Part shown: piece after piece, positions 2,936-31,026 of the stretch
How positions within the stretch are numbered: position 1 is the stretch's first letter
How the letters are laid out: each line of letters begins with the position of its first letter
From: Trichodesmium erythraeum IMS101
GTDB lineage: Bacteria > Cyanobacteriota > Cyanobacteriia > Cyanobacteriales > Microcoleaceae
DNA: 32,000 nucleotides
Assembly: GCF_000014265.1 (NCBI RefSeq)
Contig: NC_008312.1
Span: 4,260,001 to 4,292,000 of the forward strand
Reading direction: 5' to 3'
Made by a program: the position numbers and the translations under genes
Notes under the pieces: model-generated
What the model was told of the DNA's origin: nothing
The model's database searches: none
Seen by the model: the letters and a program-made list of their open reading frames with translations, nothing else

Positions 2936-2969
2936 GTAGTCTAAAATACAGACCAGGAGGTAGAAAGTC

Positions 2970-10079: not shown

Positions 10080-10483
10080 GGACTTTTTTTGACTAGGAAA
10101 AGGCTAGTACCTTTATGTGTTAATGCTTTGATGTTTAATCAGGAAGCCCTAATTACAGTATGGAATTTCAATATGTTTTTTGTTTTTGTATAAGAGGAGG
10201 TTATGGCTAAAGTCAGAAAGTAGGAATTTAGAATTTAGAAGTCAGGTTATTAAGTTGTTAAAGGACTTATAGCTGGTTTTGGGCAAATGATGTGGGGAGA
10301 TCTTGCCCTGGTAGGCGTGTCCTATAAACCTGAAATATGCTGTCTGTAGGGAAACCCAGAAATCCAGTTTTTTTTGCTAAAGTATTCTGAAAAAACAATG
10401 ATTTATCGTAAAAACTGGTTTTTTTTGGTTGGTCCTAGTTTTAATGATGATCGATAAAAAATTCAAAAATACAATAAATAAAT

Positions 10484-10948
10484 ATGAAAAAGTCATTAGA
10501 AATTTCATCAATAAAATCTCAAAGTTGGTCTATTGAAAAGTTGCCTGGTTTAAGTAAAAAGGATCAAATATTACTAACAAAAAATGGTATTAATACTACT
10601 AGAAAATTATTGGAAATAACTAAAACTTCTGAAGAAAAATTAATCCTAGCAAGTCAATTAAAAATTAATGTTCAATCTGTAAAAAAATGGGTTGCATTAG
10701 CAGATTTAGCTAGAGTTCCTACTGTTGGTTGTGAATATTGCGGACTACTACTTCATGGGGGTATTGTTTCAGTTTCTCAACTATCTCAAACTTCTGTCCA
10801 TAAATTGCATCAACAAATACTTAAGCTACAAATATCAACTATGCAACGTCGTGACCTTTCTCCGGCGTTAGATTTAGTTAATAAATGGATTCAACAAGCT
10901 CAGTTTTTATCGCTCTATAGCAGGTTAAGGAAGAAAAAAGAGGTTTAA
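10484..10948 (+). CDS. DUF4332-like (helix-hairpin-helix) domain protein
   Basis: KLPGLSKKDQILLTKNGINTTRKLL and LADLARVPTVGCEYCGLLLHGGIVSVSQL resemble the two HhH-like units of small cyanobacterial DUF4332 proteins. Confidence 0.45.
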   Translation: MKKSLEISSIKSQSWSIEKLPGLSKKDQILLTKNGINTTRKLLEITKTSEEKLILASQLKINVQSVKKWVALADLARVPTVGCEYCGLLLHGGIVSVSQLSQTSVHKLHQQILKLQISTMQRRDLSPALDLVNKWIQQAQFLSLYSRLRKKKEV

Positions 10949-11217
10949 AAATCAGAAAAAGACTTCAATTTGCAGTGGATATTTTCCAGACACTTAAAAT
11001 TTTTCATGAGCTTGTTTCGACGGGGGAAAAAAATTTGTAGTAATGCTGGATATCGCTTTTGCTATATTGCTAAGGTAAGCCTCTGCGATCGCTGCTTGTG
11101 CAATTTACCCAATAATAGGGCGGTTGTCATTAGAGTAGGGGCTTTCTGGCTATTCGCTTTTGTTTGGTTTTACTTATGACTATGTGGTTGATAAATCTGA
11201 AAAGTGCTGTAAAGTGT

Positions 11218-13429: not shown

Positions 13430-13669
13430 ACTAGTTCTCCTGATTCTTTGATTACCTAACATTTTGTTAAAGTATAATTATTATCTGTTATGATACCCCA
13501 GTTTTCCTGCACGGTAAATCATGGTAGGGAGGTTGCATTTATGGAGGTTTCGCTATGGGATATGAAACGCATTTTTGTGATGCAAGGTCCGTACAAAGTT
13601 TTAGTTATGGCGATGTTGTTTATCAATTTGAAAAGGGCTGTAAGTTTAGTTTTTGATAATTATCTTTGT

Positions 13670-14851
13670 TTAATCATGGCTATAGCGATAATCTGCAACT
13701 ATCATATCCCCTAGTCCTTCTGTCTTGGCAGTTGGTTCTTGAATTTCTTCATCATTCTCGATACTCCAACGACGAAGACTATGGAGCACATAAGTCTTAA
13801 GATCGTCTACAGTCACGAAACCCTTTTTCTCCCGGTCTGCATCACCGCTGAGTCCTTCTATTAGGTAGTGGGTGAAGACTCCAGAATTTTTCTCTGGTGA
13901 CTCTAGGGCTTTTTGCTGTGCTGTACTCGCGGCAATTAAGGCAAAACCTTCAGCTAATTCATAAGCATTTTGAATGAATTGGGGCTCGTCAATTCCTCGT
14001 CCGGTTTCGACTCCCATATGACAAGCATCCAATGTCAGTACTAAACGTCTTGCTTTGCTAGAATGCATGGATTTTTTTATGTCGGCTAGAGACAAACCTG
14101 TTTTTTCGATGGTTGGTAAACGGGTATCCCTGACTATGAGCATAGGTTGTTCATCGCGCCCAAGTTTACCGTGACAAGCAAAATACACCAGCAATAGGTC
14201 ATCTACATCGACCATATTGCATAGGTTAATTAATTCAGCTTCTATATTGTTGTGGATGGGGAAGCGGCGGCTATCAGATTCAAGATCATCATGTAAACAC
14301 ATGACTGTGTATCCAAGTTCTTTGAGTTTCTTTTCTAATTTTTGCACATCTTTTACACAGAATTTTAACTTGTGAACTCCTGGATCATTATAGCGGTTGA
14401 CTCCTACCAAAAAAGCCCAACGATTTTTTATGGGTTGACGTTTTTCTTCTTCGAGCTTTCTTTTTTTTGTGCCTCGAATTGTAGTTTCTGTCTTGGTTTC
14501 TGGTTTAAGGTTATCCAGAGTTGAGTTATCTGCAAAAGCATTTTCCAGTTCTATAATTAGATTGACTAGTTGTTGGTGACGTTGATCTTCTTCTTCGATT
14601 AAATCTTTTAAGAGACGTAACAGTAAGACAAGAGCATTTTCTTTGGTGTCACTGTGATATTTGTTATGTAAATAGCTAATTACTAAGTTTACTCTACTGG
14701 CCATACTGTTGGCTTGGGGTAAAAAACGCCAAGGTCTTAGTGGTTGATAAGTGGAAACAATAGACTGAAGGGCGCGATCGCTCTCAAATTGTTCACAGTC
14801 TAACAGAAATTGACGCAATTTTTGATATAGTTCAGGGGGAATGCCAGCCAT
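13670..14851 (-). CDS. Caspase-family (peptidase C14, orthocaspase/metacaspase-like) protease with N-terminal Death-like effector-associated adaptor domain (EAD-type)
   Basis: Intact His-Cys dyad: VYFACHGKLG (His codon 14170-14172) and LTLDACHMG (Cys codon 14011-14013). WAFLVGVNRYN is a typical p20 start. The N-terminal ~85 aa (14597-14851) are homologous to the C-terminus of the 500-aa protein and the N-terminus of the 372-aa protein. Confidence 0.85.
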   Translation of the reverse strand: MAGIPPELYQKLRQFLLDCEQFESDRALQSIVSTYQPLRPWRFLPQANSMASRVNLVISYLHNKYHSDTKENALVLLLRLLKDLIEEEDQRHQQLVNLIIELENAFADNSTLDNLKPETKTETTIRGTKKRKLEEEKRQPIKNRWAFLVGVNRYNDPGVHKLKFCVKDVQKLEKKLKELGYTVMCLHDDLESDSRRFPIHNNIEAELINLCNMVDVDDLLLVYFACHGKLGRDEQPMLIVRDTRLPTIEKTGLSLADIKKSMHSSKARRLVLTLDACHMGVETGRGIDEPQFIQNAYELAEGFALIAASTAQQKALESPEKNSGVFTHYLIEGLSGDADREKKGFVTVDDLKTYVLHSLRRWSIENDEEIQEPTAKTEGLGDMIVADYRYSHD

Positions 14852-15186: not shown

Positions 15187-15582
15187 TTATTTTGTTGAAA
15201 AAAAACTACCAATAATATCAATGCCTCTACTGATCAGGGTTTTCCCTTTTTTTGATAGTTCTGATTCTTTTGACTCGCTGCTCTCAATAACCAAGTTTTC
15301 GATTATCTCCTTGGTTTCCTTTCCTGTGAGAGGAGTAGCACGACCATTTGCAGCTCGAGGATCTGGAATGCTATTAATGCGGATATTAAGAAAAGCATCT
15401 CGAATTTGCGGATGTTCATTACACCAGAGGGCTATGGCATCAGAGATTTTTTCAACATTATCTGGAAGCTTTTGAAGCAACTGCCGCAAATTAGTGCGTT
15501 CTTTTTCTTTGAATAAATTAGGTTGTTTTTTTATTAGGTCGACAAACTTTATTATATTTTCTTCGTATTTAGATAATGACAT
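15187..15582 (-). CDS. Small helical hypothetical protein (131 aa) of the caspase/CHAT module
   Basis: ATG at 15582 preceded by AGGAGG 5 nt upstream (GTCAATAGGAGGAAAAATG). It has the same orientation as all neighbouring genes. No family recognised. Confidence 0.6.
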   Translation of the reverse strand: MSLSKYEENIIKFVDLIKKQPNLFKEKERTNLRQLLQKLPDNVEKISDAIALWCNEHPQIRDAFLNIRINSIPDPRAANGRATPLTGKETKEIIENLVIESSESKESELSKKGKTLISRGIDIIGSFFSTK

Positions 15583-15777: not shown

Positions 15778-17280
15778 TTATAAACAATACTTAAGCTTTT
15801 CTGCTAATTCAGATAAAGTTTGATTCCGAGTATCTGCTGGATCAATTGTACTACTAAGGGAGTTTACCAAAATAACCAGTACATTCTCATTGGTATCGCT
15901 ACGATACTTATTTACTAAAAAGCCAATCACTAGTCTGACTCGTTGGGCCGTATTTTTACCTTCTGGTAAGCTATTGGCCCAAGGAGAGAGCCGAGCCTGA
16001 CCTTTGAAAAAACTTTGTAGTTCTTGATTAGTTTCAAATTGGTCACACTCTAACAGAGCTTTATACAGTTGATGACGAAGTTCGTCAGTAATTCCTCGGG
16101 TCTTGTTGCCAGAAGGTGTCTGAGTAAGGTTTTCCTTTATTGCGGCTTTTAGATTTTGCAGGTGAGTACGCTTAGGACTCAGGAATTCCAGATCTGCTTG
16201 AATTTGACTTTGCAATTTTTTGCGGATGTAATTTAAAAAATCTTCCCACAAACTTAAGTCAGTATCGGGTAGCTCCCCTAGCTTTTCTAGTTTCATCCTA
16301 TAATTTTTTTCATTAGTAGCAATGGTATTTTTGTGGGCTTCCAATTCCTCTAAGTAGTCAGCATACTTAATATCTATATCCTGTAATTCTACAAGTAATG
16401 GTCTAAGTTGTTCTTGCCTATTTGGTGATCGGGAAATTTGACGGAAGCTTTTCTTGTGCTGTTCTATTTTGCTATACAGTTGTTTGAGCTGACCCTCGCA
16501 CCCGCGAGATTGATGATAGATATACTGTATCTTATGACGACACCACAAAAGAAGAAGTATTAACTCGGATGCCTTATCCATTTTCTTTTCCTCTGGATCC
16601 AGATTTTGGCATTTCAACCAAACTAGAATATGAAGTCGCTGACTAGGGTCTTTATGTCGGCTTTCATATTCAAAAATCGGGTTTCCCAGTAAATGACCTG
16701 TATTTATTAGCTCAGTTCTATTTGTTGTTGGCAGTAATTTAGCAACACAAGCATCTGCAAAATCTTGATGGTTTTCCTGTAATTCACTTGGTTGTCCAAA
16801 AAGTAATAGGGTTTGCCCTAGAGAAGCTTGAATTTGTGAGGGGAGTAGTAGGTATTGGGGATTAAGTTGAGCTAGTTGAGATAGGAAAAAAGTGCTTTGA
16901 GAATGTAGGGTGAAATCTATTGCATAAGTATCGTGTACTCGGTATGGACAGAGTAATCCTTGAAGTTGCCTATCACCAGACTTGGAGGTTATTTCAAAGT
17001 CTAATTTGGTTTGTTGATTAGGTAATAAAATTTCATATTCACTTTCTAGGTTATCTTCTGCTGCGGGAAAATACTGGTTATTTTGATAACTAATTAGTTG
17101 TTGTTGCAGATTTTGCAGTTCTGGAATATTCAGCTTATTTCCCAAATCTACTAACTGTTCCCACAACCGGGGTGCTTTTGAAGTAGGTTTTAATCCCTGG
17201 TTGATACTGTTGCGCAGATGGAAAGCATAGAGTACAAGACTGGGACTATGCAGTCCTATGGTCTGGGGTATTTCTTTCAT
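15778..17280 (-). CDS. Hypothetical protein: unknown ~270-aa N-domain, coiled coil, C-terminal EAD-type adaptor domain
   Basis: The C-terminal 105 aa (15781-16095) read GITDELRHQLYKALLECDQFETNQELQSFFKGQARLSPWANSLPEGKNTAQRVRLVIGFLVNKYRSDTNENVLVILVNSL. They align with the caspase N-terminus at roughly 40% identity by eye. The middle region is heptad-rich (KYADYLEELEAHKNTIATNEKNYRMKLEKL). Confidence 0.7.
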   Translation of the reverse strand: MKEIPQTIGLHSPSLVLYAFHLRNSINQGLKPTSKAPRLWEQLVDLGNKLNIPELQNLQQQLISYQNNQYFPAAEDNLESEYEILLPNQQTKLDFEITSKSGDRQLQGLLCPYRVHDTYAIDFTLHSQSTFFLSQLAQLNPQYLLLPSQIQASLGQTLLLFGQPSELQENHQDFADACVAKLLPTTNRTELINTGHLLGNPIFEYESRHKDPSQRLHILVWLKCQNLDPEEKKMDKASELILLLLWCRHKIQYIYHQSRGCEGQLKQLYSKIEQHKKSFRQISRSPNRQEQLRPLLVELQDIDIKYADYLEELEAHKNTIATNEKNYRMKLEKLGELPDTDLSLWEDFLNYIRKKLQSQIQADLEFLSPKRTHLQNLKAAIKENLTQTPSGNKTRGITDELRHQLYKALLECDQFETNQELQSFFKGQARLSPWANSLPEGKNTAQRVRLVIGFLVNKYRSDTNENVLVILVNSLSSTIDPADTRNQTLSELAEKLKYCL

Positions 17281-17464: not shown

Positions 17465-20400
17465 TTAGCCGATCGCGCAAAACCCTGCCCAGTAGAATGG
17501 TGATTCAAAGGGCTGATACTTATCTGACATTTGATGCAAACGACAGGCTAGATTCATTTCCAGGGTTGGACTCAGGGGGATTTTATTTTCTAAAATCCAT
17601 TTTTCCAACTCTTTTTTGGTTAGGTCTCGCAGCCAAAGTTGAGCTTGGTTAAGAGCGATCGCTACATTAGTCTGCTCCTGGGAATTTAGCAAATTTTTAT
17701 ACAACTGAATCATCAAAAGGGCTGTGGAGAGGTCATTAACAGTCCAGAGACTACTAACCACACTTGGACTCCCTGCATAGAGAAAACCGCTGGGCAGACC
17801 AATATATTCATCCCCAAGGGATTTAAAATCGCTCAGGCCTGTTTCGCAGGCGGAGAGGCTGGTGAGGCGACATTGACGCAAGTCTAAGGCGAAAATATCC
17901 CCTAAAGTTAGGCATTTTTCCAAATTAATCCCATTTCCATCTGCAGTTTCCTGAGGAGTTGGAGTTGTACTCCCTGCCAACAGCAGAGCAGAATCAATAG
18001 GCGATTTAAAATTAAAATAACCGCGACAGGCAAAATGAGCCACGTTGGTTTCAGCCAGACGTTCCTGGGTGAGGGCAGTTTTGGTAGCTTGTTGTCGTTC
18101 TAAGACGTCATCGTTAGGATAAAAGTCAGCGCGAATAGTGGCAACTTCTGGCTCGGTAAAACTGAGGTCTTCTGTAGGGTTCGTGACACTGAAAAAATGT
18201 TTGAGTGAGGAACGGTTCCAGGTTTGACTCAGTTGCAGCAGTTGGAGGCTGGGAGCATAGCTGAGACTTCCAGGAAAGCGCTCCATGAGTAAATCTCCAT
18301 TGGCTAAAGGCATGGCATGGAGGGGAAATAGGTGTAGGAACCGATGGGGAATGAGGATGAGGCGGTCGCATTTCTTTCCTTGCTGGTAAAAAATCTCGCC
18401 GACCTGGGTGAGGAGGCCATCGATATCAAGAATCTCGGCCAACCTTTTGAGGTTGGAGGCTAAATGGTCTTGCCACTGTTTTTTGTCTTCTTGCAAATAT
18501 GCAGTCAAATAATCATCTCCCCAATTTACTAAGGCTTCAAGCGTTTTTTTGTCAGTTTGTTTGACTAGCAGACTGTTGGCGGTCAGAATAAAGGTGATAA
18601 TTTTATCCTTCGTAATATACCACTCAATTATGGTAGTGCTTTCATCAATTCGACTTTGGGTATCACTCCAAGAAATCGGCTCTACCCTCTGAGTCAGGCT
18701 GAAGCTGGAGTCTATAGGCTTGATCCGTTCAAGTGTCTCCTCTAGCTGTTGCCTTGATAGCTGCAATTCTTGTTGTAGCTGTTGCTGTGATGCCATGAGC
18801 GATCGCCGCTGGGGTTCTTCTGGTGGGCTTGTATTTCCAGATAGTCGCTCTAGAACTCCTTGTAACCGCCTTTCTAGTGATGGAATGGTGCTTCGTAGTC
18901 GATCTAGCTCGGCGATGATCTCTTGGGGAACATCGCCTTTAGGATAGATGTCGCGCTTGGCTAGAAGTTCGACTAGGTTGCGAGTTTTGCTGCGTTCGGC
19001 TGTTTTGAAGGCTTGATCCCATTGCTCTAAATTGATGTATGTTTGCACCAGATTTTGATAAACTGATATTGCTTCTGCTATAATCTCTTGGCGGCGTTTG
19101 TCGGTAGTTGCCCAACTGCGGCTGAGTTCCACTGCAGCTATGGCTTTTTCATAGTTGTCGGCTGCGAGTTGCCAGTTTTGGTTGTCGAAATATAGGTAGC
19201 CTAAGTTGTTGGTGGTTTGTAGATGGTCGATGGGGTTTGCTTCCAGGGTACGCACCAGCAAAGCTTGTTGGAATGCAGCAATGGCGACTTCAATATTTTC
19301 GGCTTTTTCTCCCCTTATTCTGTAAATGTAGGCAGCGCCGAGATTATTTTGAGTCATTGCCCAGTCCATGGGGAAGTCAGTTTGGGTGAGTACCTGTAAA
19401 GCTTGTTGGTATTCAGCAATGGCAGCTTCAATATTTTCGGCTTTGTCTCCCCTTATTCTGTAAATGTAGGCAGCGCCGAGATTATTTTGAGTTGTTGCCC
19501 AGTCCATGGGGAAGTCTGTTTGGGTGCGCACCAGCAAAGCTTGTTGGTATGCAGCAATGGCGGCTTCAATATTTTCGGCTTTGTCTCCCCTTATTCTGTA
19601 AATGTAGGCATTGCCGAGATTATTTTGAGTTCTTGCCCAGTCCATGGGTAAGTCAGTTTGGGTGTACACCAGCAAAGCTTGTTGGTATGCAGCAATGGCA
19701 GATTCAATATTTTCGGTTTTGTCTCCCCTTATTCTGTCACTGTAGGCAGCGCCGAGATGATTTTGAGTCATTGCCCAGTCGATGGGTAAGTCAGTTTGGG
19801 TGCGCACCAGCAAAGCTTGTTGGCATGCAGCAATGGCAGCTTCAATATTTTCGGCTTTGTCTCCCCTTATTCTGTAAATGTAGGCAACGCCGAGATTATT
19901 TTGAGTCATTGCCCAGTCGATGGGTAAGTCAGTTTGGGTGCGCACCAGCAAAGCTTGTTGGCATGCAGCAATGGCAGCTTCAATATTTTCGGCTTTGTCT
20001 CCCCTTATTCTGTAAATGTAGGCAACGCCGAGATTATTTTGAGTCATTGCCCAGTCCATGGGTAAGTCAGTTTGGGTGAACACCAGCAAAGCTTGTTGGC
20101 ATGCAGCAATAGCAGCTTCAATATTTTCGGCTTTGTCTCCCCTTATTCTTTCTCTGTAGGCATTGCCGAGATTGTTTTGAGTTCCTGCCCAGTTGATGGG
20201 GAAGTCAGTTTGGGTGTACACCAGCAAAGCTTGTTGGCATGCAGCAATGGCAGCTTCAATATTTTCGGCTTTGTCTCCCCTTATTCTGTAAATGTAGGCA
20301 ACGCCGAGATGATTTTGAGTTCCTGCCCAGTCCACGGGGAAGTCAGTTTGGGTGCGCACCAGCAAAGCTTGTTGGCATGCAGCAATGGCAGCTTCAATAT

Positions 20401-22600
20401 TTTCGGCTTTGTCTCCCCTTATTCTTTCACAGTAGGCAATGCCGAGATGATTTTGAGTCATTGCCCAGTCCATGGGGAAGTCAGTTTGGGTGCGCACCAG
20501 CAAAGCTTGTTGGAATGCAGCAATGGCGGCTTCAATATTTTCGGCTTTGTCTCCCCTTATTCTTTCTCTGTAGGCATTGCCGAGATTATTTTGAGTTCCT
20601 GCCCAGTCCATGGGGAAGTCTGTTTGGGTGCGTACCAGCAAAGCTTGTTGGAATGCAGCAATGGCGGCTTCAATATTTTCGGCTTTGTCTCCCCTTATTC
20701 TGTCACTGTAGGCAATGCCGAGATTATTTTGAGTTCCTGCCCAGTCCATGGGGAAGTCTGTTTGGGTGAACACCAGCAAAGCTTGTTGGCATGCAGCAAT
20801 AGCAGCTTCAATATTTTCGGCTTTGTCTCCCCTTATTCTGTTACTGTAGGCAAGGCCGAGATTATTTTGAGTTTTTGCCCAGTCGATGGGGAAGTCAGTT
20901 TGGCTGTGCACCAGCAAAGCTTGTTCGTATGCAGCAATGGCAGTTTCAATATTTTCGGCTTTGTCTCCCCTTATTCTGTCACTGTAGGCATTGCCGAGAT
21001 TATTTTGAGTCATTGCCCAGTCCATGGGGAAGTCAGTTTGGGTGCGCACCAGCAAAGCTTGTTGGTATGCAGCAATGGCGGCTTCAATATTTTCGGCTTT
21101 GTCTCCCCTTATTCTGTTACTGTAGGCAATGCCTAGATTATTTTGAGTTGCTGCCCAGTCGATGGGGAAGTCAGTTTGGGTGCGCACCAGCAAAGCTTGT
21201 TGGCATGCAGCAATGGCAGCTTCAATATTTTGGGCTTTGTCTCCCCTTATTCTGTCTCTGTAGGCAACGCCGAGATTATTTTGAGTCATTGCCCAAATTT
21301 CCCGGTGACTCTTAGAGGTAAAGACTTTTAGCACGACTTCATAACCTGCAATACTAATTTCCATGTTGTTTGCTTTGTTACCCAGAGGAAATTCCTGAAT
21401 GAGGCCACTGAAATAACCAATAGACATAGCCATATCTTCTGCTACATCCGCCTCCACTTCAGAAAATATAGCAGTTGCCCGGTGTCGCAATATATCAGCA
21501 CAGTTACCATCAAGCTTATCTAAGTTTTGTTCTAGGAGTGGGTAAACAACTTTCGAGTTACCTTTGCTTTGTCTGGTTGCCTGCAATACCTCTCCCAAAA
21601 ACTTCAAATAATTTTGTTTGTCTATATCAGTTTTAATAGTACTTTTTAGTTCTTCAATGTCATTATTTGATTTTTGATTAGCTAATTTAACAGTCTCAAG
21701 CAACATCTCGTTTATCAGAGTGGGGACTTTAGAGAGATCTACTCCTAGATTTTCCAGAACCCTTACAGCTACTCCTTCTCCTTCTCGAATTAAACCCAAA
21801 AGTAAATGCTCTGTCCCAATATAATTATGTCCTAATTGCTGTGCTTCCTCCAAAGAGAATTCTAAAACTGTTTTAGCTCTAGGAGCAAATGGAATTTCTG
21901 CTTCTACATCTCCCGAACCACGGCCAATTATTTTTTCCACTTCAATCCGAGCATCCTTTAGGTTTACGCCCATATATTTTAGGACTTTGGCCGCTACCCC
22001 TGTTCCTTCTCCAATTAAACCCAGAAGGATTTGTTCTGTCTCTACAAAGTCATGTCCCAAGCGACGGGCCTCATCCTGGGCCAACATGATCGCTTTGATT
22101 GGTTTTTCGGTGAAGCGATCAAACATACTTTTAGACCTCTGACGAATATCCACCTCTACCTCATCAGTCTCAAGCAACATCTCGTTTATCAGAGTGGGGA
22201 CTTTAGAGAGATCTACTCCTAGATTTTCCAGAACCCTTACAGCTACTCCTTCTCCTTCTCGAATTAAACCCAAAAGTAAATGCTCTGTCCCAATATAATT
22301 ATGTCCTAATTGCTGTGCTTCCTCCGAAGAGAATTCTAAAACTGTTTTAGCTCTAGGAGCAAATGGAATTTCTGCTTCTACATCTCCTGAACCACGGCCA
22401 ATTATTTTTTCCACTTCAATCCGAGCATCCTTTAGGCTTACGCCCATAGATTTTAGGACTTTGGCTGCTACCCCTGTTCCTTCTCCAATTAAACCCAGAA
22501 GGATTTGTTCTGTATCTACAAAGTTATGTCCCAAACGACCAGCCTCATGCTGGGCCAACATTATCGCTTTGATTGGTTTTTCGGTGAAGCGTTCAAACAT
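17465..22600 (-). CDS. Giant 1711-aa protein: 2 x ClpC-type Clp_N domain, lead-in domain, ~15 x 46-aa TPR-like repeats, linker, C-terminal CHAT (caspase-like) domain with His-to-Arg at the catalytic His position
   Basis: N-terminus [50 protein letters not shown]... is the ClpC/ClpB N-domain signature and occurs twice. The repeat unit is [46 protein letters not shown]. CHAT motifs are [10 protein letters not shown] (expected HxxxHG) and [10 protein letters not shown], then [19 protein letters not shown] and [10 protein letters not shown]. Confidence 0.9.
19240..21300 (-). repeat. Intragenic array of ~15 near-identical 138-bp (46-codon) TPR-like repeats
   Basis: RIRG(D/E)K counted 15 times in the translation. 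The period matches the 138 bp measured directly in the homologous array of the neighbouring gene (CCATGG at 24792, 24930, 25068). Confidence 0.9.
21692..22600 (-). repeat. Tandem 474-bp duplication encoding the Clp_N module (copy 1 22166-22600, copy 2 21692-22126, 39-bp linker)
   Basis: AGTCTCAAGCAACATCTCG... starts at 21692 and again at 22166. The 145-aa copies differ at 8 residues (E3D, H18D, G21R, N26D, D29E, S51Y, S55N, S92L). The promoter-distal ~230 nt differ at only 2 nt by eye. Confidence 0.9.
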
Positions 22601-22671
22601 ATTTTCAGACTTTCGTTAGGGTTTCTAGCAAATATAACTACTATGATTTCGCTTAAAACGACATAATTCAG

Positions 22672-23569: not shown

Positions 23570-24199
23570 ATGGTTAAAACAATACCAGCTAGTCAAATTG
23601 ACCTATATTCTTTAGAAGAAAATTTTGGTTTAAAACGGGCATACGAACCCACTTTTTTCCCGGAATGGCAAGAAAATTTACCAGAATTGACGGAATTGGA
23701 AAAACAAGAATTAGTGCAGCTTAAAGCGGATTATTTGCGTCTTTCTAAACGTCCCATGTTAGAACCTCTGGTAAAAATGGTGGTATTATCACCTTTATTG
23801 AGGGCAGCAGGTTTTTATCGGGAACCCTTTTTTCTCTCCGCTGAAAAACAGATAAAAATTACTTCCGAAGATGGGGGAGCGATCGTTACAGGTAAAATTG
23901 ATATATTGGTTTATACCCCTCAATTTTGGGTATTAGTAATTGAGGCGAAACGGGTTGAATATTCATTACAAGTAGGTATTCCTCAAATATTGGCTTATAT
24001 GTTAGACTCTCCAGAAATCGAACAATCTGCTTTTGGATTTGTGACAAATGGTAGTGAGTTTAGATTTGTTAAACTACTTAAAAGAGATACTATCCAATAT
24101 GGATTATCTCGTTTATTTTCCATAGATAGTGGGGAAGATTTATATACTGTTGTGAGTATTTTTAAGAGCCTCGCTCAATTCGTGATTCAGCAAAATTAA
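23570..24199 (+). CDS. PD-(D/E)XK-type (HsdR-N-like) putative nuclease-fold protein, paralogue of 8906..9508
   Basis: GKIDILVY...WVLVIEAKRVEYSLQVGIPQILAYM gives a D...E-x-K...Q arrangement. It is the only plus-strand gene inside the island and sits between the two repeat-array genes. Confidence 0.55.
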   Translation: MVKTIPASQIDLYSLEENFGLKRAYEPTFFPEWQENLPELTELEKQELVQLKADYLRLSKRPMLEPLVKMVVLSPLLRAAGFYREPFFLSAEKQIKITSEDGGAIVTGKIDILVYTPQFWVLVIEAKRVEYSLQVGIPQILAYMLDSPEIEQSAFGFVTNGSEFRFVKLLKRDTIQYGLSRLFSIDSGEDLYTVVSIFKSLAQFVIQQN

Positions 24200-24495: not shown

Positions 24496-27400
24496 TCAAG
24501 GATTTAATACTTCTTTTACACCTTCAATAAGGAACTGAGCAACAGGATGATCAATCATTTTTTCTAAAGCTGCTAAACCTCCTGCTTTTAATCCTCGGAT
24601 AATTCGATATTTTAACTGAGGATTTTTATCAACTTCATCCATAGCTTTAGCACTTAAAACTCTATAACTATCGTTAGGATAATCTTCTGAAAGTTGATTG
24701 AGTAGATTTTTAATATCTTTAGCTGCTTGTGCTAGGTCTTGATTAATTTTTCTGTAGGCATTGCCGAGATTATTTTGAATTGTTGCCCATTCCATGGGGA
24801 AGTCAGTTTGGGTGTACACCAGCAAAGCTTGTTCGTATGCAGCAATGGCGGCTTCAATATTTTCCGCTTTGTCTCCCCTTATTCTGTTTCTGTAGGCATT
24901 GCCGAGATTATTTTGAATTGTTGCCCATTCCATGGGGAAGTCAGTTTGGGTGTACACCAGCAAAGCTTGTTCGTATGCAGCAATGGCAGCTTCAATATTT
25001 TCGGCTTTGTCTCCCCTTATTCTGTAAATGTAGGCAGCGCCGAGATTATTTTGAGTTGTTGCCCAGTCCATGGGGAAGTCTGTTTGGGTGCGCACCAGCA
25101 AAGCTTGTTGGTATGCAGCAATGGCAGCTTCAATATTTTCGGCTTTGTCTCCCCTTATTCTGTTACTGTAGGCATTGCCGAGATTATTTTGAATTGTTGC
25201 CCATTCCATGGGGAAGTCAGTTTGGGTGTACACCAGCAAAGCTTGTTGGTATGCAGCAATGGCAGCTTCAATATTTTCGGCTTTGTCTCCCCTTATTCTG
25301 TCACTGTAGGCATTGCCGAGATTATTTTGAGTTGTTGCCCAGTCCATGGGGAAGTCTGTTTGGGTGCGCACCAGCAAAGCTTGTTGGTATGCAGCAATGG
25401 CAGCTTCAATATTTTCGGCTTTGTCTCCCCTTATTCTGTCACTGTAGGCAATGCCGAGATTATATTGAGTTCCTGCCCAGTCCATGGGGAAGTCTGTTTG
25501 GGTGCGCACCAGCAAAGCTTGTTGGTATGCAGCAATGGCAGCTTCAATATTTTCGGCTTTGTCTCCCCTTATTCTGTCACTGTAGGCATTGCCGAGATTA
25601 TTTTGAGTTGTTGCCCAGTCCATGGGGAAGTCAGTTTGGGTGTACACCAGCAAAGCTTGTTGGAATGCAGCAATGGCAGCTTCAATATTTTCGGCTTTGT
25701 CTCCCCTTATTCTGTCACTATAGGCATTGCCGAGATTATTTTGAGTTCCGGCCCAGTCGATGGGGAAGTCAGTTTGGGTGCTTACCTGCAAAGCTCGTTT
25801 GTATGCAGCAATGGCGGCTTCAATATTTTCGGCTTTGTCTCCCCTTATTCTGTCTCTGTAGGCATTGCCGAGATTATTTTGAGTCATTGCCCAGTTGATG
25901 GGGAAGTCAGTTTGGGTGCGCACCAGCAAAGCTTGTTGGTATGCAGCAATGGCAGCTTCAATATTTTCGGCTTTGTCTCCCCTTATTCTGTTACTGTAGG
26001 CATTGCCGAGATTATTTTGAGTCATTGCCCAGTTGATGGGGAAGTCAGTTTGGGTGTACACCAGCAAAGCTTGTTGGTATGCAGCAATGGCGGCTTCAAT
26101 ATTTTCGGCTTTGTCTCCCCTTATTCTGTTTCTGTAGGCAATGCCGAGATTATTTTGAGTATTTGCCCAGTCCATGGGGAAGTCAGTTTGGGTGTACACC
26201 AGCAAAGCTTGTTGGTATGCAGCAATGGCAGCTTCAATATTTTCGGCTTTGTCTCCCCTTATTCTGTCACTGTAGGCAGCGCCGAGATTATTTTGAGTCA
26301 TTGCCCAGTCCATGGGGAAGTCAGTTTGGGTGTACACCAGCAAAGCTTGTTGGTATGCAGCAATGGCAGCTTCAATATTTTGGGCTTTGTCTCCCCTTAT
26401 TCTGTCTCTGTGGGCATTGCCGAGATTATTTTGAGTCATTGCCCAGTCCATGGGGAAGTCAGTTTGGGTGTACACCAGCAAAGCTTGTTCGTATGCAGCA
26501 ATGGCAACTTCAATATTTTCGGCTTTGTCTCCCCTTATTCTCTCACTGTACCCATTGCCGAGGCTATTTTGAGTTGCTGCCCATTCAAAGGGGAAGTCAG
26601 TTTGGGTAAGCACCATCAAAGCTTGTTGGCATGCAGCAATAGCCGATTCAATATTCTGGGCTTTGTCTCCTCTTATTCTGTTACTGTAGGCAATGCCGAG
26701 ATGATTTTGAATAATTCCCCACTCTTTAGGAAACTCTTCTCGTCGAAAAATTTGACAAGCAATCTGATATCCAGTAATAGCAATTTCTAAGTTTATCGCT
26801 ATATTTCCCAATGTAAAATTGCCTAATAAATTGCTAAATCTAGTAAGAGATGAACCAATTCTATGTAATTCAACTGGTTCCGTATTTAACAGTATATTAG
26901 TTGACCATTCTTGTAATAACCCAATTAAATCTTCATTTAACCTCTCTAGATTTGCTTCCAAAAATGGATAAATTTTCCATTGAGGATTATCATCATTATC
27001 AGAAACAATATTTAGTAACTCTTCGAGGAAAGACAACTCAACAGAAATTAGAGGAATTTCATCAGGAATTGACAAACTAACTCCAGCAATTTTAACTTGA
27101 CGTTCCCACCTAGAAAGCTGAGAGAATTGTTTTGTTGCACCCTCCAAATCTCCACTCGTAAAAGACACCATTCCACGGGCGTAGGTAATCAGTGGTGGTT
27201 CAAATTCCGCTAAAGCAGTTGGAAAACTTTCTATAAATAACCCAAATCTAAACAACTCCTTCCAGTTTTTCTGCTTCAATCTCTCTTCAATAGCCAGTGC
27301 CAGTTTATGATTAAGCTGATTAGGCTGACTACAAGCAAGGGACATCCAATACTCAGCCGTTCCTAAGTCTCTCCTCCTCAAATCATCACCATCAAGTTGC

Positions 27401-27747
27401 TGTTTCACATAGTTACTGTAGAAATCTGCTAGTTCTTTTAACCGAGGCTTATCAAAACGCTTATCTTCCTTCAACTCTTGCAACAACAAATTTCGGACAT
27501 TTACATCCATTTCATAAAGCTCATAGCCTACCTCACGGCACAAGCGAGATAAAAGTATGCGAGCAACTGCCGTCCAAGGAGCTTGGGGGACAAAGCGAAG
27601 CCAAATTTGGTAGAGCAAATCAGGAGTAAGTGTCTGTGGAAACGCTGCATGACAAGCTAAATCAAGATGTGTACCGTCGAATTGTTGGGCAAATCCTACC
27701 ACCCTCTCAACAGCTATTTCCGAATCTATTGCTTTAGTTGAATTCAT
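24496..27747 (-). CDS. 1083-aa vWA-MoxR-associated protein: ~230-aa helical N-domain, lead-in domain, ~14.5 x 46-aa TPR-like repeats, ~85-aa helical C-terminal tail
   Basis: The ATG at 27747 overlaps the vWA stop (ATGA). The repeats use the same consensus as the CHAT protein, and RIRGDK was counted 14 times plus one truncated unit. The lead-in (FLEELL...YPFLEANLERL...FTLGNIAINLEIAITGYQ) is homologous to the CHAT protein's (FLGEVL...[11 protein letters not shown]...[18 protein letters not shown]). Confidence 0.85.
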   Translation of the reverse strand: MNSTKAIDSEIAVERVVGFAQQFDGTHLDLACHAAFPQTLTPDLLYQIWLRFVPQAPWTAVARILLSRLCREVGYELYEMDVNVRNLLLQELKEDKRFDKPRLKELADFYSNYVKQQLDGDDLRRRDLGTAEYWMSLACSQPNQLNHKLALAIEERLKQKNWKELFRFGLFIESFPTALAEFEPPLITYARGMVSFTSGDLEGATKQFSQLSRWERQVKIAGVSLSIPDEIPLISVELSFLEELLNIVSDNDDNPQWKIYPFLEANLERLNEDLIGLLQEWSTNILLNTEPVELHRIGSSLTRFSNLLGNFTLGNIAINLEIAITGYQIACQIFRREEFPKEWGIIQNHLGIAYSNRIRGDKAQNIESAIAACQQALMVLTQTDFPFEWAATQNSLGNGYSERIRGDKAENIEVAIAAYEQALLVYTQTDFPMDWAMTQNNLGNAHRDRIRGDKAQNIEAAIAAYQQALLVYTQTDFPMDWAMTQNNLGAAYSDRIRGDKAENIEAAIAAYQQALLVYTQTDFPMDWANTQNNLGIAYRNRIRGDKAENIEAAIAAYQQALLVYTQTDFPINWAMTQNNLGNAYSNRIRGDKAENIEAAIAAYQQALLVRTQTDFPINWAMTQNNLGNAYRDRIRGDKAENIEAAIAAYKRALQVSTQTDFPIDWAGTQNNLGNAYSDRIRGDKAENIEAAIAAFQQALLVYTQTDFPMDWATTQNNLGNAYSDRIRGDKAENIEAAIAAYQQALLVRTQTDFPMDWAGTQYNLGIAYSDRIRGDKAENIEAAIAAYQQALLVRTQTDFPMDWATTQNNLGNAYSDRIRGDKAENIEAAIAAYQQALLVYTQTDFPMEWATIQNNLGNAYSNRIRGDKAENIEAAIAAYQQALLVRTQTDFPMDWATTQNNLGAAYIYRIRGDKAENIEAAIAAYEQALLVYTQTDFPMEWATIQNNLGNAYRNRIRGDKAENIEAAIAAYEQALLVYTQTDFPMEWATIQNNLGNAYRKINQDLAQAAKDIKNLLNQLSEDYPNDSYRVLSAKAMDEVDKNPQLKYRIIRGLKAGGLAALEKMIDHPVAQFLIEGVKEVLNP
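24745..26745 (-). repeat. Intragenic array of ~14.5 near-identical 138-bp repeats, cross-identical to the array at 19240-21300
   Basis: Exact 138-bp period (CCATGG at 24792 / 24930 / 25068). Units are above 90% identical to each other and to those of the CHAT gene by eye. Confidence 0.9.
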
Positions 27748-28979
27748 AATGATTTTTGCCGGCTCAACTCATAAAAATCTTTCCCATACACATAGCGACC
27801 ACGCAAAGCATTGATAGCAGCATTAAATCCTTGAGGACTCATCTCAAACATTGGCACAAACCGAGCAATTTCCCCAGCAGTCGTGCCTTGCCAACTATCA
27901 TTAGGCATAGGATTTAGCCAAGCATAATAACGGACTGACTGCCGAAGTTGTTCAATAAACCTCTGGGTGCACTCAATTCGCTCTGGGTTATAATTACTCC
28001 TGGCAGCTCCAGCATCACTGACCATAAGTACTCCTGCTCTTTCATCGATAGCTCCTAAAATATCTGTAATTAGTTGAGCTTTGAGGCGAGTTGGGTCACT
28101 ATAAAAATATATTTCAGGATAATTATAAAAATAATAAACACTCGCCTGCTCAATATTTCCACCCCGTCGAGCTTTATCTATTAATTGACGGGATAAATGA
28201 TGAAAAGGAATCATTGAGCCACCTTGATCAACCAGTAACACAAGTTTAACTCGATTTACATAATTTGGCATCAGCACCGCTTCAATTAAGATGCATTGCT
28301 GACAAATCTTGGCTACCGTAGCTGGTACATTCAACTTGTCCGATATACCTTGGGGGACTGAACGACTTAAAAAACGCCAACTCTGCTTAATCTGCCGAGG
28401 GGTCACTGGCAGGTATTGAGCAGCTAGATCTTGGTATTCAGAAATCATTTCATTAGACCTATTATAATGTCGGATAGCTTGAATGACCAGTTCTGGTTCA
28501 TCTATTTCTAGGGGAATATCAGTCAATGGACTCGGTTTTGACACAGGTATTTCTGGCTCTTTTAATGGAGCTTTTTCCTCAAGTTGCTCAGATATGTTGC
28601 GAACAGGCGTCGCTGTAGATGGTAAAGTCGAAGAGTCCATAACTTCCTCAGACTCCTTTGATACAGGTCTAGTTGAAGCGCTAGTTGGGGAGGGATTCGG
28701 TGTATCTTCGACAGGTTGTGGTAATTCAGCAGAAGAAGGAGCATTGGTTATTGCCCGACCTAGAAGTTGATGTAACAGGCGGGCCTCCTGTTCAGATTTT
28801 GTCCACAAAGTACAACATAGTCGTTCTAAAGAGTCGCGATCGCCTATACCAAACCCACCTTGCAATGCCCTCAGCACTAACATATAGTCTTCAACTCCCA
28901 AAGGCAAGCCATATTGGCGCAAACTGTAAAAAAGAGACAGTAAGACCTTCAACAAAGGTACTTCTTCAACGACATTCAT
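27744..28979 (-). CDS. von Willebrand factor A (vWA, CoxE-like) domain protein with Pro/Ser-rich linker
   Basis: The ATG at 28979 overlaps the MoxR stop (ATGA), with AGGAGG 7 nt upstream. LVLLVDQGGSM is a MIDAS-position motif (DxGxS where DxSxS is canonical). VLMVSDAGAA is a typical later vWA strand. The N-terminal helical region resembles CoxE-type proteins. Confidence 0.75.
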   Translation of the reverse strand: MNVVEEVPLLKVLLSLFYSLRQYGLPLGVEDYMLVLRALQGGFGIGDRDSLERLCCTLWTKSEQEARLLHQLLGRAITNAPSSAELPQPVEDTPNPSPTSASTRPVSKESEEVMDSSTLPSTATPVRNISEQLEEKAPLKEPEIPVSKPSPLTDIPLEIDEPELVIQAIRHYNRSNEMISEYQDLAAQYLPVTPRQIKQSWRFLSRSVPQGISDKLNVPATVAKICQQCILIEAVLMPNYVNRVKLVLLVDQGGSMIPFHHLSRQLIDKARRGGNIEQASVYYFYNYPEIYFYSDPTRLKAQLITDILGAIDERAGVLMVSDAGAARSNYNPERIECTQRFIEQLRQSVRYYAWLNPMPNDSWQGTTAGEIARFVPMFEMSPQGFNAAINALRGRYVYGKDFYELSRQKSL

Positions 28980-29923
28980 TTTCTTTCCTCCTGGGAGGAG
29001 TATAAATATTCTCTATAATCATGCCAATACTTAAGTAGAACTTGAGCAAAAGGCAGTTCACCGTTTAGCTTCCCTAATACCTCCTCTTCAGGATATTGTC
29101 GTAGAATGGTAAACCAATCAATTAACTCACTGGTACTTACCTTTTTACCAGTTTTGCCACTATCTCTCTCCATCTGTTTTCTCAGTTCACCAAAGCGCCA
29201 TACTGCTTTTCTCATAACCTCCGGTGCTGCCTCTGGAAAATGAGCCTTAACAATGTTAACCAATTCAGCTTCATTAGGAAATTCGATATAATAAAAAAGA
29301 CAACGACGTAAGAAAGCATCTGGTAAATCTTTTTCTTCATTACTGGTAATAAATATAATTGGTGGTTCTTTAGCCTTAATTTCGTATTCTTTCTCTACTT
29401 CTTTTTCTTGACTTTTTATCTCTGGTATGGTAAAGCGCTTTTCATCTAGCACCTGAAGCAAATCATTAGGGAAGTCAATATCAGCCTTATCAATTTCATC
29501 AATTAGAATTACAGTACGCTGGGAATTTTCAAAAGCACGACCCAGTGGCCCTAGTTTAATATAATTCCAAAGATTATCAACCCTAGAGAGTTTCTGTCCA
29601 TCAAGACGGGCTAGTTGGGCATCGTGGAGGCGAGCGATCGCATCGTAAGTGTAACAACCATCTTTAGCCTTGCTTGTAGACTGAATATACCAAGGTTCGT
29701 AGGGTAAACCTAGCTCATAAGCCACAGCCCTCGCCAAGCGAGTTTTACCACTACCAGGTTCCCCCTTCAACAATAAAGGACGTTTTTGTAAAAAAATAGT
29801 CAGATTAACTGCCTCAACCAACTCTGGTGAAGGTATATAAGGTTCAAGTCCATGCAGTTCGCACTCCTGTTCCGAAGGTTGTCTTTCCCCCGTATAGAGG
29901 CGAGGAATCACTGAATCAACCAT
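28976..29923 (-). CDS. MoxR-type AAA+ ATPase
   Basis: Walker A LLKGEPGSGKTRLA, Walker B VILIDEIDKAD, and sensor/Arg region ITSNEEKDLPDAFLRRC. The ORF track starts at a TTG (29944). I prefer the ATG at 29923 because AGGAGGG lies 9 nt upstream (29932-29938). Either start overlaps the upstream gene's end. Confidence 0.85.
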   Translation of the reverse strand: MVDSVIPRLYTGERQPSEQECELHGLEPYIPSPELVEAVNLTIFLQKRPLLLKGEPGSGKTRLARAVAYELGLPYEPWYIQSTSKAKDGCYTYDAIARLHDAQLARLDGQKLSRVDNLWNYIKLGPLGRAFENSQRTVILIDEIDKADIDFPNDLLQVLDEKRFTIPEIKSQEKEVEKEYEIKAKEPPIIFITSNEEKDLPDAFLRRCLFYYIEFPNEAELVNIVKAHFPEAAPEVMRKAVWRFGELRKQMERDSGKTGKKVSTSELIDWFTILRQYPEEEVLGKLNGELPFAQVLLKYWHDYREYLYSSQEERK

Positions 29924-31026
29924 TTGGCCAACCCTCCTTCCCAACTACGGCCACAGTAATCACAAATTTGTCTATAAACCAGCTCAGGAACACCTCCTTG
30001 AGATTTTTGGAGTAATTCATCAACAGATATACTCTCAGGTACCATATTTTTTCGTACAACACTATTTTTCCATGTTTCTAAATGATAGTATGAAAATTTA
30101 CCAGTTTCAGGTAAGCATAAAGGGTCCTTAGGATATTTTGAATTTTCAAACTTCCAAGTTAGGGAAACTCCTGATTTACAAACTATTCCTTTATCATCAA
30201 CCAAAAACATTAATAAATAAGTTTTTTGGTGAGTAGCTTTTTCGACTATTGGCCACCAAAATTTTTTAATTAAATCTGGTAAAAAACCTGTAAAAGTACG
30301 GTGGAGTCCTGAAAAAATAAAAATTAAATTTTGAGTTTCTAAACATTGTAAAATTGCATTAATAACCTGTTCGTCTGTAGTATTTGAACCAAAAAATTCA
30401 GAAGAAATTTTTCCCCATAATTCCCTAATATCGCTCATCCGAGTTAAATCCCTTTGGATTTTACGTCCATTACTTAATTCTGGCAATTTACGTAATAGCC
30501 TAGTAAGCAGAGCTTTCTGACCACAATTTTCATCATACCCATCAATCAGAAAAGCTCCCGTTCGTTTGTGTGATTTTTGGCATTTTATAGCTTTTCTAAC
30601 AGTATCTTCTTGTTCTGAAAAATCAATATCAATTATTGATTGAAACAACTGGCTGTTATTATTATTGCCTAAAGATGTTGATGAATTTAAGGGTAAAGAT
30701 GGATTTTCTAATTCTTTTTTAACCTTGTTCCATAAATTATTAATTCTATGCCACATCTCGTCTTCTTCATAGTATTCATCTCTCAAATTTTCCAAAAAAA
30801 TTATAAATATACACCCATATTCTTGATGTCTTGTTTTTATTAAAATATCCAGATTTAACATCACTAATAACCCTGGTGTATTAGCTTCTTTCAGTTTATT
30901 TGATACCACATTTAATTCCTTAATTGCCCCGCAAAAACTACGCAAGTATTGAAAATTGGTAAAAATGTCGCATTCTAAAAGAACATCCCTGCATTCTTTA
31001 TAAAGTTCTCCTGGTAGCCCACTCAT
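29908..31026 (-). CDS. EAD-type adaptor domain fused to a degenerate (probably inactive) P-loop NTPase-like domain
   Basis: N-terminus MSGLPGELYKECRDVLLECDIFTNFQYLRSF shares the ELY-x5-LL-[DE]-C-[DE]-x-F...L-x-S signature with the caspase N-terminus. The Walker-A position reads FLIDGYDENCGQKALL (no GK[ST]). The Walker-B position reads LIFIFSGLH (no Asp). It is the first gene of the MoxR-vWA operon. Confidence 0.65.
   Translation of the reverse strand: MSGLPGELYKECRDVLLECDIFTNFQYLRSFCGAIKELNVVSNKLKEANTPGLLVMLNLDILIKTRHQEYGCIFIIFLENLRDEYYEEDEMWHRINNLWNKVKKELENPSLPLNSSTSLGNNNNSQLFQSIIDIDFSEQEDTVRKAIKCQKSHKRTGAFLIDGYDENCGQKALLTRLLRKLPELSNGRKIQRDLTRMSDIRELWGKISSEFFGSNTTDEQVINAILQCLETQNLIFIFSGLHRTFTGFLPDLIKKFWWPIVEKATHQKTYLLMFLVDDKGIVCKSGVSLTWKFENSKYPKDPLCLPETGKFSYYHLETWKNSVVRKNMVPESISVDELLQKSQGGVPELVYRQICDYCGRSWEGGLAKWLIQ

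Follow-up and report, generated by a model that had tools for sequence, protein, structure and literature searches.

The window analysed here is a 32,000-nucleotide (nt) stretch of the cyanobacterium Trichodesmium erythraeum IMS101 (contig NC_008312.1, positions 4,260,001 to 4,292,000), and our main subject within it is Tery_2763 (ABG51946.1), a large protein whose existing annotation reads 'TPR repeat containing protein' and nothing more. Tery_2763 begins with two N-terminal domains (NTDs) of the type found in the unfoldase ClpC, continues as a TPR array, ends in a CHAT (caspase-like) domain, and lies among genes for proteins with death-like domains, one of which is an orthocaspase. We tentatively propose, at a probability of about 0.45, that the head of Tery_2763 is a ClpC-mimicking bait or sensor mounted on a TPR-CHAT conflict-system protein.

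Architecture of Tery_2763

The original prediction, made from the letters of the sequence, had placed two complete Clp_N modules at amino acids (aa) 1-145 and 159-303, differing at 8 of 145 residues and nearly identical in the distal half of their DNA, and had described an N-domain that lacks an AAA+ module and is fused to a TPR-CHAT protein. All of these points are confirmed. Pfam recognises four Clp_N half-repeats in aa 1-303, amounting to two full N-domains (E 4.9e-70), and positions 1-145 of a custom NTD hidden Markov model (HMM) match Tery_2763 twice, at 255 and 257 bits. At the DNA level the copies differ at 13 of 435 nt, with all 13 differences confined to the first 275 nt and the final 160 nt identical (21692-21851 in copy 2 and 22166-22325 in copy 1). 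Such a difference-free 3' stretch has a P of 0.0026 under a model of uniform spread, which argues for a conversion or recombination tract and not for plain divergence after duplication. Tandem Repeats Finder (TRF) describes the pair as a repeat with a period of 474 nt and 1.9 copies at 21691-22610, and the TPR array as one with a period of 138 nt and 14.9 copies at 19246-21295.

Pfam finds no AAA domain (D1 or D2) anywhere in the 1711 aa, one NTD being followed by the second and then by the TPR array, and no DNA-binding domain either, the order being NTD, NTD, TPR, CHAT. The 32-kb window holds no Clp_N copies beyond these two. The 5' leader of Tery_2763, tested as part of the duplication unit, bears no resemblance to the linker between the copies, and no promoter or terminator signal exceeded shuffle expectation when the 5' region was scanned. 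The coordinates of Tery_2763 and its neighbours are collected in Table 1.

Table 1. Tery_2763, its parts and the neighbouring genes (positions counted from the first letter of the window).
Feature	Position	Strand	Evidence or remark
Tery_2763 (ABG51946.1) open reading frame (ORF)	17465..22600	-	1711 aa
ClpC-type N-domain copy 1, aa 1-145	22166..22600	-	Pfam Clp_N; top phmmer match in the PDB is the ClpC1 NTD
Inter-copy linker, 13 aa	22127..22165	-	Translation
ClpC-type N-domain copy 2, aa 159-303	21692..22126	-	Pfam Clp_N
Helical cap ahead of the TPR array, aa 304-435	21296..21691	-	Common to ordinary cyanobacterial TPR-CHAT proteins
TPR_10-type array, ~15 units of 46 aa (138 nt)	19121..21295	-	Pfam TPR_10/TPR_12; TRF
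Helical middle region between TPR array and CHAT, aa 1161-1395	18416..19120	-	Translation; covered in alignments of CHAT-family homologues
CHAT (caspase-like) domain, aa 1396-1711	17468..18415	-	Pfam CHAT, E 5e-45, 154.6 bits
Codon CGC, Arg1526, at the catalytic-His position (HFACRGYF)	18023..18025	-	CHAT alignment
Catalytic Cys1585 (LSACETG), kept	17846..17848	-	CHAT alignment
X-bDLD1, partner of TPR-CHAT	15778..17280	-	Pfam bDLD1 at aa 396-477
Conserved 131-aa ORF downstream of X	15187..15582	-	Alignable proteins in the same position in loci L028 and L030
bDLD1-caspase, orthocaspase ABG51943.1 (Tery_2760 by numbering)	13670..14851	-	Pfam bDLD1 and Peptidase_C14
1083-aa protein: unknown N-domain, 46-aa TPR array, C-terminal tail	24496..27747	-	Start overlaps the stop of the vWA gene
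CoxE-like vWA protein	27744..28979	-	VWA_CoxE 23.7 bits, below the 26.4-bit cut-off; 4-nt overlap with both neighbours
MoxR-like AAA+ ATPase	28976..29944	-	AAA_5, E 2.2e-12, 47.6 bits
bDLD1-iSTAND protein, 'third component' core	29908..31026	-	Pfam iSTAND, E 2.2e-18 (67.6 bits); bDLD1, E 1.7e-11

ClpC identity and reality of the fusion

The N-domains had been proposed to be of ClpC type and not generic Clp_N, and the comparison agrees. In a phmmer search of the PDB the chloroplast ClpC1 NTD (5gui) scores 229 bits (E 1e-67), against ~165 bits for the Mtb ClpC1 NTD, ~153 bits for the B. subtilis ClpC NTD and 31 bits for ClpB, and each copy shares 84.8% of its residues with the NTD of the bona fide Trichodesmium ClpC (P0132; P numbers are our handles for the proteins compared). 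The ClpC2 structures 9p2p and 8ad9 are also among the PDB matches, and the ClpT structures 4y0b and 4y0c appear as distant ones (E 1e-9 to 1e-7).

The original prediction had named an assembly chimera as a danger, and two circumstances could suggest one, or else a repeat whose copies had been merged or multiplied by the assembler: a near-identical 474-nt tandem repeat is the type of sequence that assemblers mishandle, and several relatives from the European Nucleotide Archive (ENA) terminate in adapter-derived sequence. Nevertheless, an artefact of assembly or annotation is effectively refuted, and the fusion is real. The IMS101 genome is finished, as a 7.75-Mb contig; P0543, from the independent metagenome-assembled genome (MAG) of T. 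erythraeum GBRTRLIN201, agrees with aa 1-525 at 99.8%, a stretch that holds the junction as well as the two copies; P0003, from the Trichodesmium St18_bin1 MAG, spans the junction with two diverged copies and the TPR cap; and P0009 spans the passage from Clp_N to TPR with one copy and the same cap. Together with P0011 and P0121, the last two show the junction and the tandem modules independently.

Origin, copy number and rate of evolution

Cyanobacterial ClpC NTDs are nearly invariant in protein sequence, and the source of the module was therefore traced through synonymous sites. Against Trichodesmium clpC the window copies show a proportion of synonymous differences (pS) of 0.40, a synonymous divergence (dS) of ~0.57 and identical codons at 69% of conserved residues, whereas against three other cyanobacterial clpC genes (GC content at third codon positions, GC3, 0.19, 0.49 and 0.66) pS is 0.80-0.89 and only 33-40% of these codons are identical, the same saturated values that Trichodesmium clpC itself gives against those three. 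Because the similarity at synonymous sites is specific to Trichodesmium clpC, the Clp_N head of Tery_2763 is shown to be a capture from the lineage's own clpC, and the premise of host derivation on which the idea of a bait had been built is strengthened. The copied stretch runs from the start codon of clpC to the 'ETAEV' linker between NTD and D1, and the Met has been kept at the start of copy 2.

The captured module now evolves far more quickly than ClpC. Comparisons of ClpC with ClpC give a nonsynonymous divergence (dN) of 0.012-0.056 with dS saturated; module against clpC gives a dN/dS of 0.15, and module against module 0.36-0.49. By these values the constraint on the module is strongly relaxed relative to ClpC, with no signal above 1. 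No module of their clade has moved further from ClpC than the window copies, at 84.8% identity versus 88-90% for P0011_m1 and P0003_m2.

The description of the module as recently duplicated holds for the present pair, in which copy 1 and copy 2 differ by a dS of 0.05 (two Trichodesmium clpC alleles differ by 0.068), but not for the array. Relatives carry one module (P0009), two (the window protein and P0543) or at least three (P0121); the copies in P0003 and P0011 are diverged; the single module of P0009 resembles copy 1 in its 5' part and copy 2 in its 3' part; and the window-type linker also stands between modules in P0121, P0011 and P0003. From these alignments, the tandem Clp_N array is older than this pair and unstable in the lineage. 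The ENA proteins P0009, P0011, P0121 and P0123 have C-termini reading CLLYTSPSPRD..., CLLYTSDAADD... or LSLIHISEPTRP..., which we take to be translated sequencing adapter, and since adapter contamination cuts these contigs off, their copy numbers are lower bounds and possibly collapsed.

Two further arrangements were seen. In P0005/P0122, P0005 has three ClpC-NTD modules and keeps the start of D1 (TPTLDEFG...VVGR) between them, suggesting that the clpC 5' end has been captured more than once. P0035 resembles a ClpC paralogue in which a real AAA+ D1 is preceded by two N-domains.

Related TPR-CHAT loci and fusions in other lineages

Scans with the junction and the cap recovered 27 genome and 11 metagenome loci, with caps 42-70% identical in the best segment, from Okeania, Dapis, Moorena, Nostocales and Trichodesmium MAG_R03. 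Not one of these 38 TPR(-CHAT) loci, the closest of which reaches at most 70% identity, carries Clp_N; they begin instead with a short helical leader of the MDEQRIEAY type. By this comparison of sequences, the Clp_N pair is shown to have replaced the usual leader, in a graft limited to the Trichodesmium lineage. Two of the 150 nearest CHAT representatives (P0300 and P0368) have a single, far more diverged Clp_N placed before the usual leader.

Across 241 sequences (240 retrieved proteins and the window protein), AAA-less tandem ClpC-NTD arrays are common: 113 carry two to four modules, and many of the AAA-less Clp_N arrays stand alone. Elsewhere the NTD pair is fused to a caspase (P0029, which adjoins Csx3, HD and WYL genes, and P0069), to the effector-associated domains (EADs) EAD7 (P0055) and EAD1 (P0075), to a Ser/Thr kinase (P0026) or to TPR (P0074). 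In P0109 an actinobacterial-type NTD pair is joined to CHAT, next to CHAT-TPR and TIR-STAND-TPR genes. Judged by their sequences, some of these fusions of ClpC NTDs with conflict domains clearly arose independently. Among the papers searched we found no report of the pairing of Clp_N with CHAT; a survey of 473 cyanobacterial orthocaspases lists Clp_N, without interpretation, as accessory to 2 of them (PMC8283722).

We also considered Clp_N as a homotypic adaptor of the EAD kind and rejected it: the gene island around Tery_2763 holds no second Clp_N, and Clp_N pairs, being themselves fused to EAD1 and EAD7, are cargo and not adaptor.

Similar arrays turn up in more distant company. In the Chloroflexota-type proteins P0093, P0094, P0101, P0106, P0112 and P0113, AAA-less Clp_N pairs are combined with a ClpX-type zinc finger (PF06689), so that the docking heads of two unfoldases stand together with no ATPase. 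The Papaver proteins P0007, P0008 and P0012-P0016 (620-810 aa) have multiple Clp_N and no AAA+ in the precomputed Pfam list, and AAA-less Clp_N arrays are thus not confined to bacteria.

Pocket and groove residues

The ClpC NTD binds phospho-arginine (pArg) in pockets that include T7, E32 and E106 in Bs/Sa numbering, which are T6, E31 and E106 in Tery_2763 (PMC12583610, PMC13345244), and the ClpC2 mutation T99A, at the equivalent of T6, abolishes pArg binding (PMC13345244). Cyclic peptides, MdfA and unfolded substrate dock at K85, F80 and the hydrophobic groove (PMC12583610, PMC13345244). We scored the pocket residues that are explicitly named (T7, E32, E106, K85, F80 and ClpC2 T99); T81 is pseudo-symmetric to T6, and we take its role from that symmetry and from the T99A result.

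Over 259 modules from 110 AAA-less multi-Clp_N proteins the mean conservation of all module positions is 65%, and the ligand-pocket positions are among the best kept: E31 98%, E106 93%, G29 93%, F2 91%, T81 89%, T30 88%, T6 86% and K85 82%. For the window copies, the conservation of binding residues that the original prediction had asked about turned out to be partial. Both keep T6, T30, E31, T105, E106, F2, F80, K85 and E89, but both also have T81A and an acidic replacement of G29, which is Asp in the first copy and Glu in the second, and T81 and G29 are still present in the closest relatives (P0011_m1, P0003 and P0121). Changes specific to copy 1 are E18H, R21G, G29D, N55S and L92S, and those specific to copy 2 are E3D, E18D, N26D, G29E and S51Y. 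Relative to ClpC, the changes lie in the N-terminal part of the first half-repeat (positions 9, 12, 18, 21, 26 and 29), at 73-76 (FVAV to DVEA), at the start of the second half-repeat (81, 86, 90, 92 and 96) and at the C-terminal end of the module (135-143). The older ClpN-TPR-CHAT proteins P0300 and P0368 have neither E31 nor T81, so a pArg-type pocket is not obligatory in CHAT fusions.

These residues bear on the possibility that the head is directed at ClpC itself, the NTD pair titrating adaptors or docking on the M-domains or AAA1 of ClpC and thereby deregulating or shutting down ClpCP, or tethering CHAT to ClpC. In resting ClpC the pArg pockets and K85 of the NTD do touch AAA1 and the M-domains (PMC12583610), the NTD pairs occupy on EAD1 and EAD7 the cargo slot that is usual for effector or signalling domains, and many AAA-less arrays stand alone. 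However, T81A and G29D/E would weaken exactly those M-domain and AAA1 contacts, and we regard this explanation, which would require an isolated NTD to bind ClpC in trans, as improbable.

The CHAT domain and its catalytic site

The CHAT domain of Tery_2763 has 947 homologous representatives at E<=1e-30, and the catalytic site was aligned with the 150 nearest of them and P0109, 151 homologues in all. The catalytic-His column (motif HFSCHGYFN) holds His in 149 of the 151 and the catalytic-Cys column holds Cys in 147; Tery_2763 keeps Cys1585 and has Arg1526 in place of the His, its CGC codon being one transition from CAC. That this change is private to IMS101 is ruled out, as Arg also occurs in several other genomes: the Arg allele is found in IMS101, in GBRTRLIN201 (99.6% identical), in ALOHA_ZT_67 (93.9%) and in one ENA contig, and the His allele in MAG_R01 (97.0%), in the 97%-identical contig L030 and in another ENA contig. 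This distribution among Trichodesmium genomes implies that the ancestral Tery_2763 was an intact protease. The label 'protease' given to the protein at the outset can thus be kept for the CHAT fold (Pfam, 154.6 bits) and the retained Cys, but not for the IMS101 catalytic site, where the His is replaced by Arg in a natural polymorphism. Going by its residues, the IMS101 allele probably lacks catalytic activity and would be a pseudo-protease or scaffold, or else a loss-of-function variant segregating in nature. The polymorphism provides field and laboratory studies with a natural on/off contrast.

A second use of the head, foreseen in the original prediction, would be docking: the NTD pair would bring clients with ClpC degrons (pArg-like, adaptor-bound or unfolded) to TPR-CHAT for cleavage. 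The pArg-pocket residues are the most conserved positions over AAA-less modules, T6, E31, T105, E106, F2, F80, K85 and E89 are kept in the window copies, the hydrophobic groove of the ClpC and ClpB NTDs binds unfolded substrate (PMC12583610), and the head sits directly N-terminal on the protease. Even so, we consider docking unlikely. Both copies have lost T81 and G29, P0300 and P0368 lack E31 and T81, and the same NTD pair is fused to the non-proteolytic EAD1, EAD7 and kinase. The catalytic His is missing in the IMS101 allele and in several wild genomes, which would exclude client cleavage as a function of the Arg alleles. For the IMS101 allele, substrate docking is the reading chiefly weakened by the pocket losses and the Arg at the catalytic site.

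The same losses could be read as decay, in which case fusion and amplification would have arisen neutrally, by recombination in a genome rich in repeats and pseudogenes, and the gene would be losing its function. The window copies stand furthest from ClpC in their clade, conserved pocket residues are gone, the CHAT catalytic His is Arg, and the locus is full of near-identical, recombining repeats. Yet the 5.1-kb ORF is intact, dN/dS stands at 0.15-0.49 and not near 1, an independent wild MAG preserves the head with its two copies at 99.8%, and other lineages have fused ClpC NTDs to CHAT or caspase, at least once independently (P0109). The Arg allele, moreover, has persisted beside His alleles in genomes of 94-99.6% identity, an indication of a maintained polymorphism and not of a one-off lesion. 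We accordingly rate decay as improbable and retain the bait or sensor as our preferred account of the head.

The death-like-domain island

Three window proteins carry bDLD1: the iSTAND protein, the caspase and X. The caspase has its dyad intact (FACHG and LDACH motifs) and is already among the known IMS101 orthocaspases. At 27744-31026 the MoxR AAA+, vWA and iSTAND genes lie together as overlapping ORFs, the composition described for the iSTAND ternary conflict system, in which MoxR and vWA accompany an iSTAND third component (Kaur et al. 2020, PMC7159879), with the vWA match here below threshold. Under the published EAD principle, in which core and effectors share a domain, assembly of the three bDLD1 proteins is to be expected. 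Tery_2763 itself lacks bDLD1 and would be tied to this hub through its conserved partner X-bDLD1.

In six Nostocales loci, and also in L028, the gene directly after TPR-CHAT is a homologue of X; in L028 the order is CHAT, TPR-CHAT, X-bDLD1, small ORF, 54-aa ORF, bDLD1-STAND NTPase and bDLD1-caspase. TPR-CHAT, X-bDLD1, the small ORF and the bDLD1-caspase are thereby shown to form a conserved module. The AlphaFold2 (AF2) model of X (predicted local distance difference test, pLDDT, 90.8) has an alpha/beta domain, three long helices and the C-terminal bDLD1. A Foldseek comparison of this model with the PDB gave no significant match (best E 0.008, template-modelling (TM) score 0.16-0.33), and Pfam and PADLOC recognise nothing in X besides bDLD1. 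Members of its family (P0391-P0510) often have, after bDLD1, an effector domain of the trypsin-like, calcineurin-like or nucleoside phosphorylase type. On the strength of the model, X may contain an undescribed conflict-system domain that pairs with TPR-CHAT.

The TPR arrays of Tery_2763 (19246-21295) and of the 1083-aa protein (24752-26710) are 91-92% identical at the nt level over ~2 kb and in several registers. This likeness suggests, from the DNA, that the two genes evolve in concert or exchange sequence, and perhaps that their products have a partner in common or assemble together. The ORFs antisense to the arrays, at 19403-21315 (+) and 24739-26790 (+) and up to 683 aa long, are generated by the repeats and are not genes.

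Two more genes border the set. Between the iSTAND operon and Tery_2763, at 23570-24199 (+), lies a 209-aa PD-(D/E)xK/HSDR_N-like gene (ABG51947.1) that matches the CRISPR-associated PD_DExK model of PADLOC (E 2e-8), has 53 cluster members and is widespread in Trichodesmium. Downstream of the caspase, at 11969-13462 (-), is a gene for a 497-aa protein that belongs to no Pfam family and has weak coiled-coil/SMC-like matches (JetC, LmuB); it may be a further island component.

The head as bait or sensor

We propose, tentatively and at the probability of about 0.45 given above, that the ClpC-NTD pair mimics the regulatory docking platform of ClpC. The head would bind a molecule that normally docks on the ClpC NTD, for which the candidates are an adaptor of the NblA or ClpS type, phage-encoded ones included, a ligand resembling a phospho-tag, or a peptide that targets the NTD. 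Binding would be relayed to the TPR-CHAT scaffold and from there, via X-bDLD1, to the caspase hub, the shared death-like domains wiring the island proteins into one signalling hub on the EAD principle, and the response within the trichome would be cell suicide or immunity. Phage-encoded NblA is widespread, and NblA acts through ClpC (PMC12695635); if it docks on the NTD, phage NblA would be a plausible class of trigger in cyanobacteria.

Several points weigh against this proposal. The ligand and the signalling steps are wholly inferred. The bait would sit on an effector-type protein and not, as in classic integrated decoys, on an NTPase receptor. In the IMS101 allele the catalytic Cys-His dyad is broken (His to Arg1526), both copies have lost T81 and are acidic at G29, and the older fusions P0300 and P0368 dispense with E31 and T81. 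A dN/dS below 1 throughout gives no positive sign of an arms race. Lastly, related TPR-CHAT/X loci are without iSTAND, MoxR and vWA, L028 having a bDLD1-STAND NTPase instead, and so any functional coupling of Tery_2763 to the iSTAND operon would depend only on the shared bDLD1; in the window, an opposite-strand gene and a gap of ~1.9 kb separate the two.

A stronger and rather doubtful version would make the head a true integrated decoy that guards ClpC, as a hub which cyanophages would hijack by means of viral NblA-type adaptors. Their binding would fire the TPR-CHAT/X-bDLD1/caspase death module in the infected cell of the filament, and the fusions in other lineages would then be instances of a general 'guard the unfoldase' strategy.

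Comparison with known systems

The protein has partial counterparts in five kinds of system:

(i) ClpC2 of mycobacteria and other actinobacteria, the published precedent for the bait or sensor reading, is an AAA-less homologue of the ClpC1 NTD that acts as sensor and sponge for cyclomarin, rufomycin and pArg, and ligand binding to it sets off a protective response (PMC13345244). Both proteins retain a ClpC N-domain without the ATPase, and ClpC2 is a ligand-binding mimic of the ClpC docking site. ClpC2, however, is a small transcriptional repressor with one NTD-like domain ~40% identical to ClpC1, whereas Tery_2763 has two modules, each 85% identical to ClpC, on a TPR-CHAT protein of 1400 aa with no DNA-binding or repressor part.

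(ii) The iSTAND/bDLD1-EAD systems (Kaur, Burroughs, Iyer and Aravind 2020, 2021) share with this locus a bDLD1-iSTAND protein, MoxR, a CoxE-like vWA, a bDLD1-caspase, another bDLD1 protein and a multicellular cyanobacterium as host. They differ in that Tery_2763, which bears the ClpN pair here, is of effector type and is not the vWA component, and a search of both papers for Clp terms found no account of ClpN repeats on TPR-CHAT or of the pairing of TPR-CHAT with X-bDLD1.

(iii) Csx29 of the type III-E CRISPR system (Craspase) likewise combines a TPR scaffold with CHAT, its Cys motif aligns with that of Tery_2763, and it too has a conserved adjacent gene, X occupying at Tery_2763 the position that a substrate or partner would take. 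The similarity is weak (E 4e-4), and Tery_2763, unlike Csx29, has no CRISPR effector, carries a ClpC-derived head and has Arg for His.

(iv) The integrated decoys of plant nucleotide-binding leucine-rich repeat (NLR) receptors also have a domain of a host protein, a plausible pathogen target, inserted into an immune or cell-death protein. Tery_2763 is not an NLR or STAND receptor, and the likeness would be one of logic only.

(v) Orthocaspases with Clp_N, of which P0029 and P0069 are examples, and the plant proteins ClpT1 and ClpT2 have Clp_N without AAA+. ClpT proteins assist assembly of the ClpP core, and ClpT1 and ClpT2 are distant from the Tery_2763 modules (E 1e-9 to 1e-7).

Tery_2763 thus joins two known kinds of protein, an effector of TPR-CHAT type from a death-domain conflict system and a putative mimic of the ClpC NTD; what is new here, and previously unremarked, is the fusion of Clp_N to CHAT and its source in the lineage's own clpC. 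Trichodesmium blooms collapse by caspase-associated programmed cell death, and this locus links the orthocaspase Tery_2760, through death-like domains, to an iSTAND/MoxR/vWA switch and to a ClpC-headed TPR-CHAT protein. If the head is a bait, the locus would be a case of integrated-decoy immunity in bacteria with ClpC as the guarded target, and it would have concrete candidates in viral or host NblA, ClpS and phospho-tags. The recurrence of ClpC NTDs with CHAT, caspase, EADs and kinase across lineages suggests a general principle and not a one-off.

Other features of the window

Positions 1-11000 of the window have a GC content of ~0.27-0.38 and few ORFs, which fits the known high non-coding fraction of IMS101. 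The genes there are a seemingly truncated CoA-ligase fragment (124-618), sucD (1308-2180), and genes for a helix-turn-helix (HTH) protein, DUF3768, an aldo-keto reductase and DUF4332.

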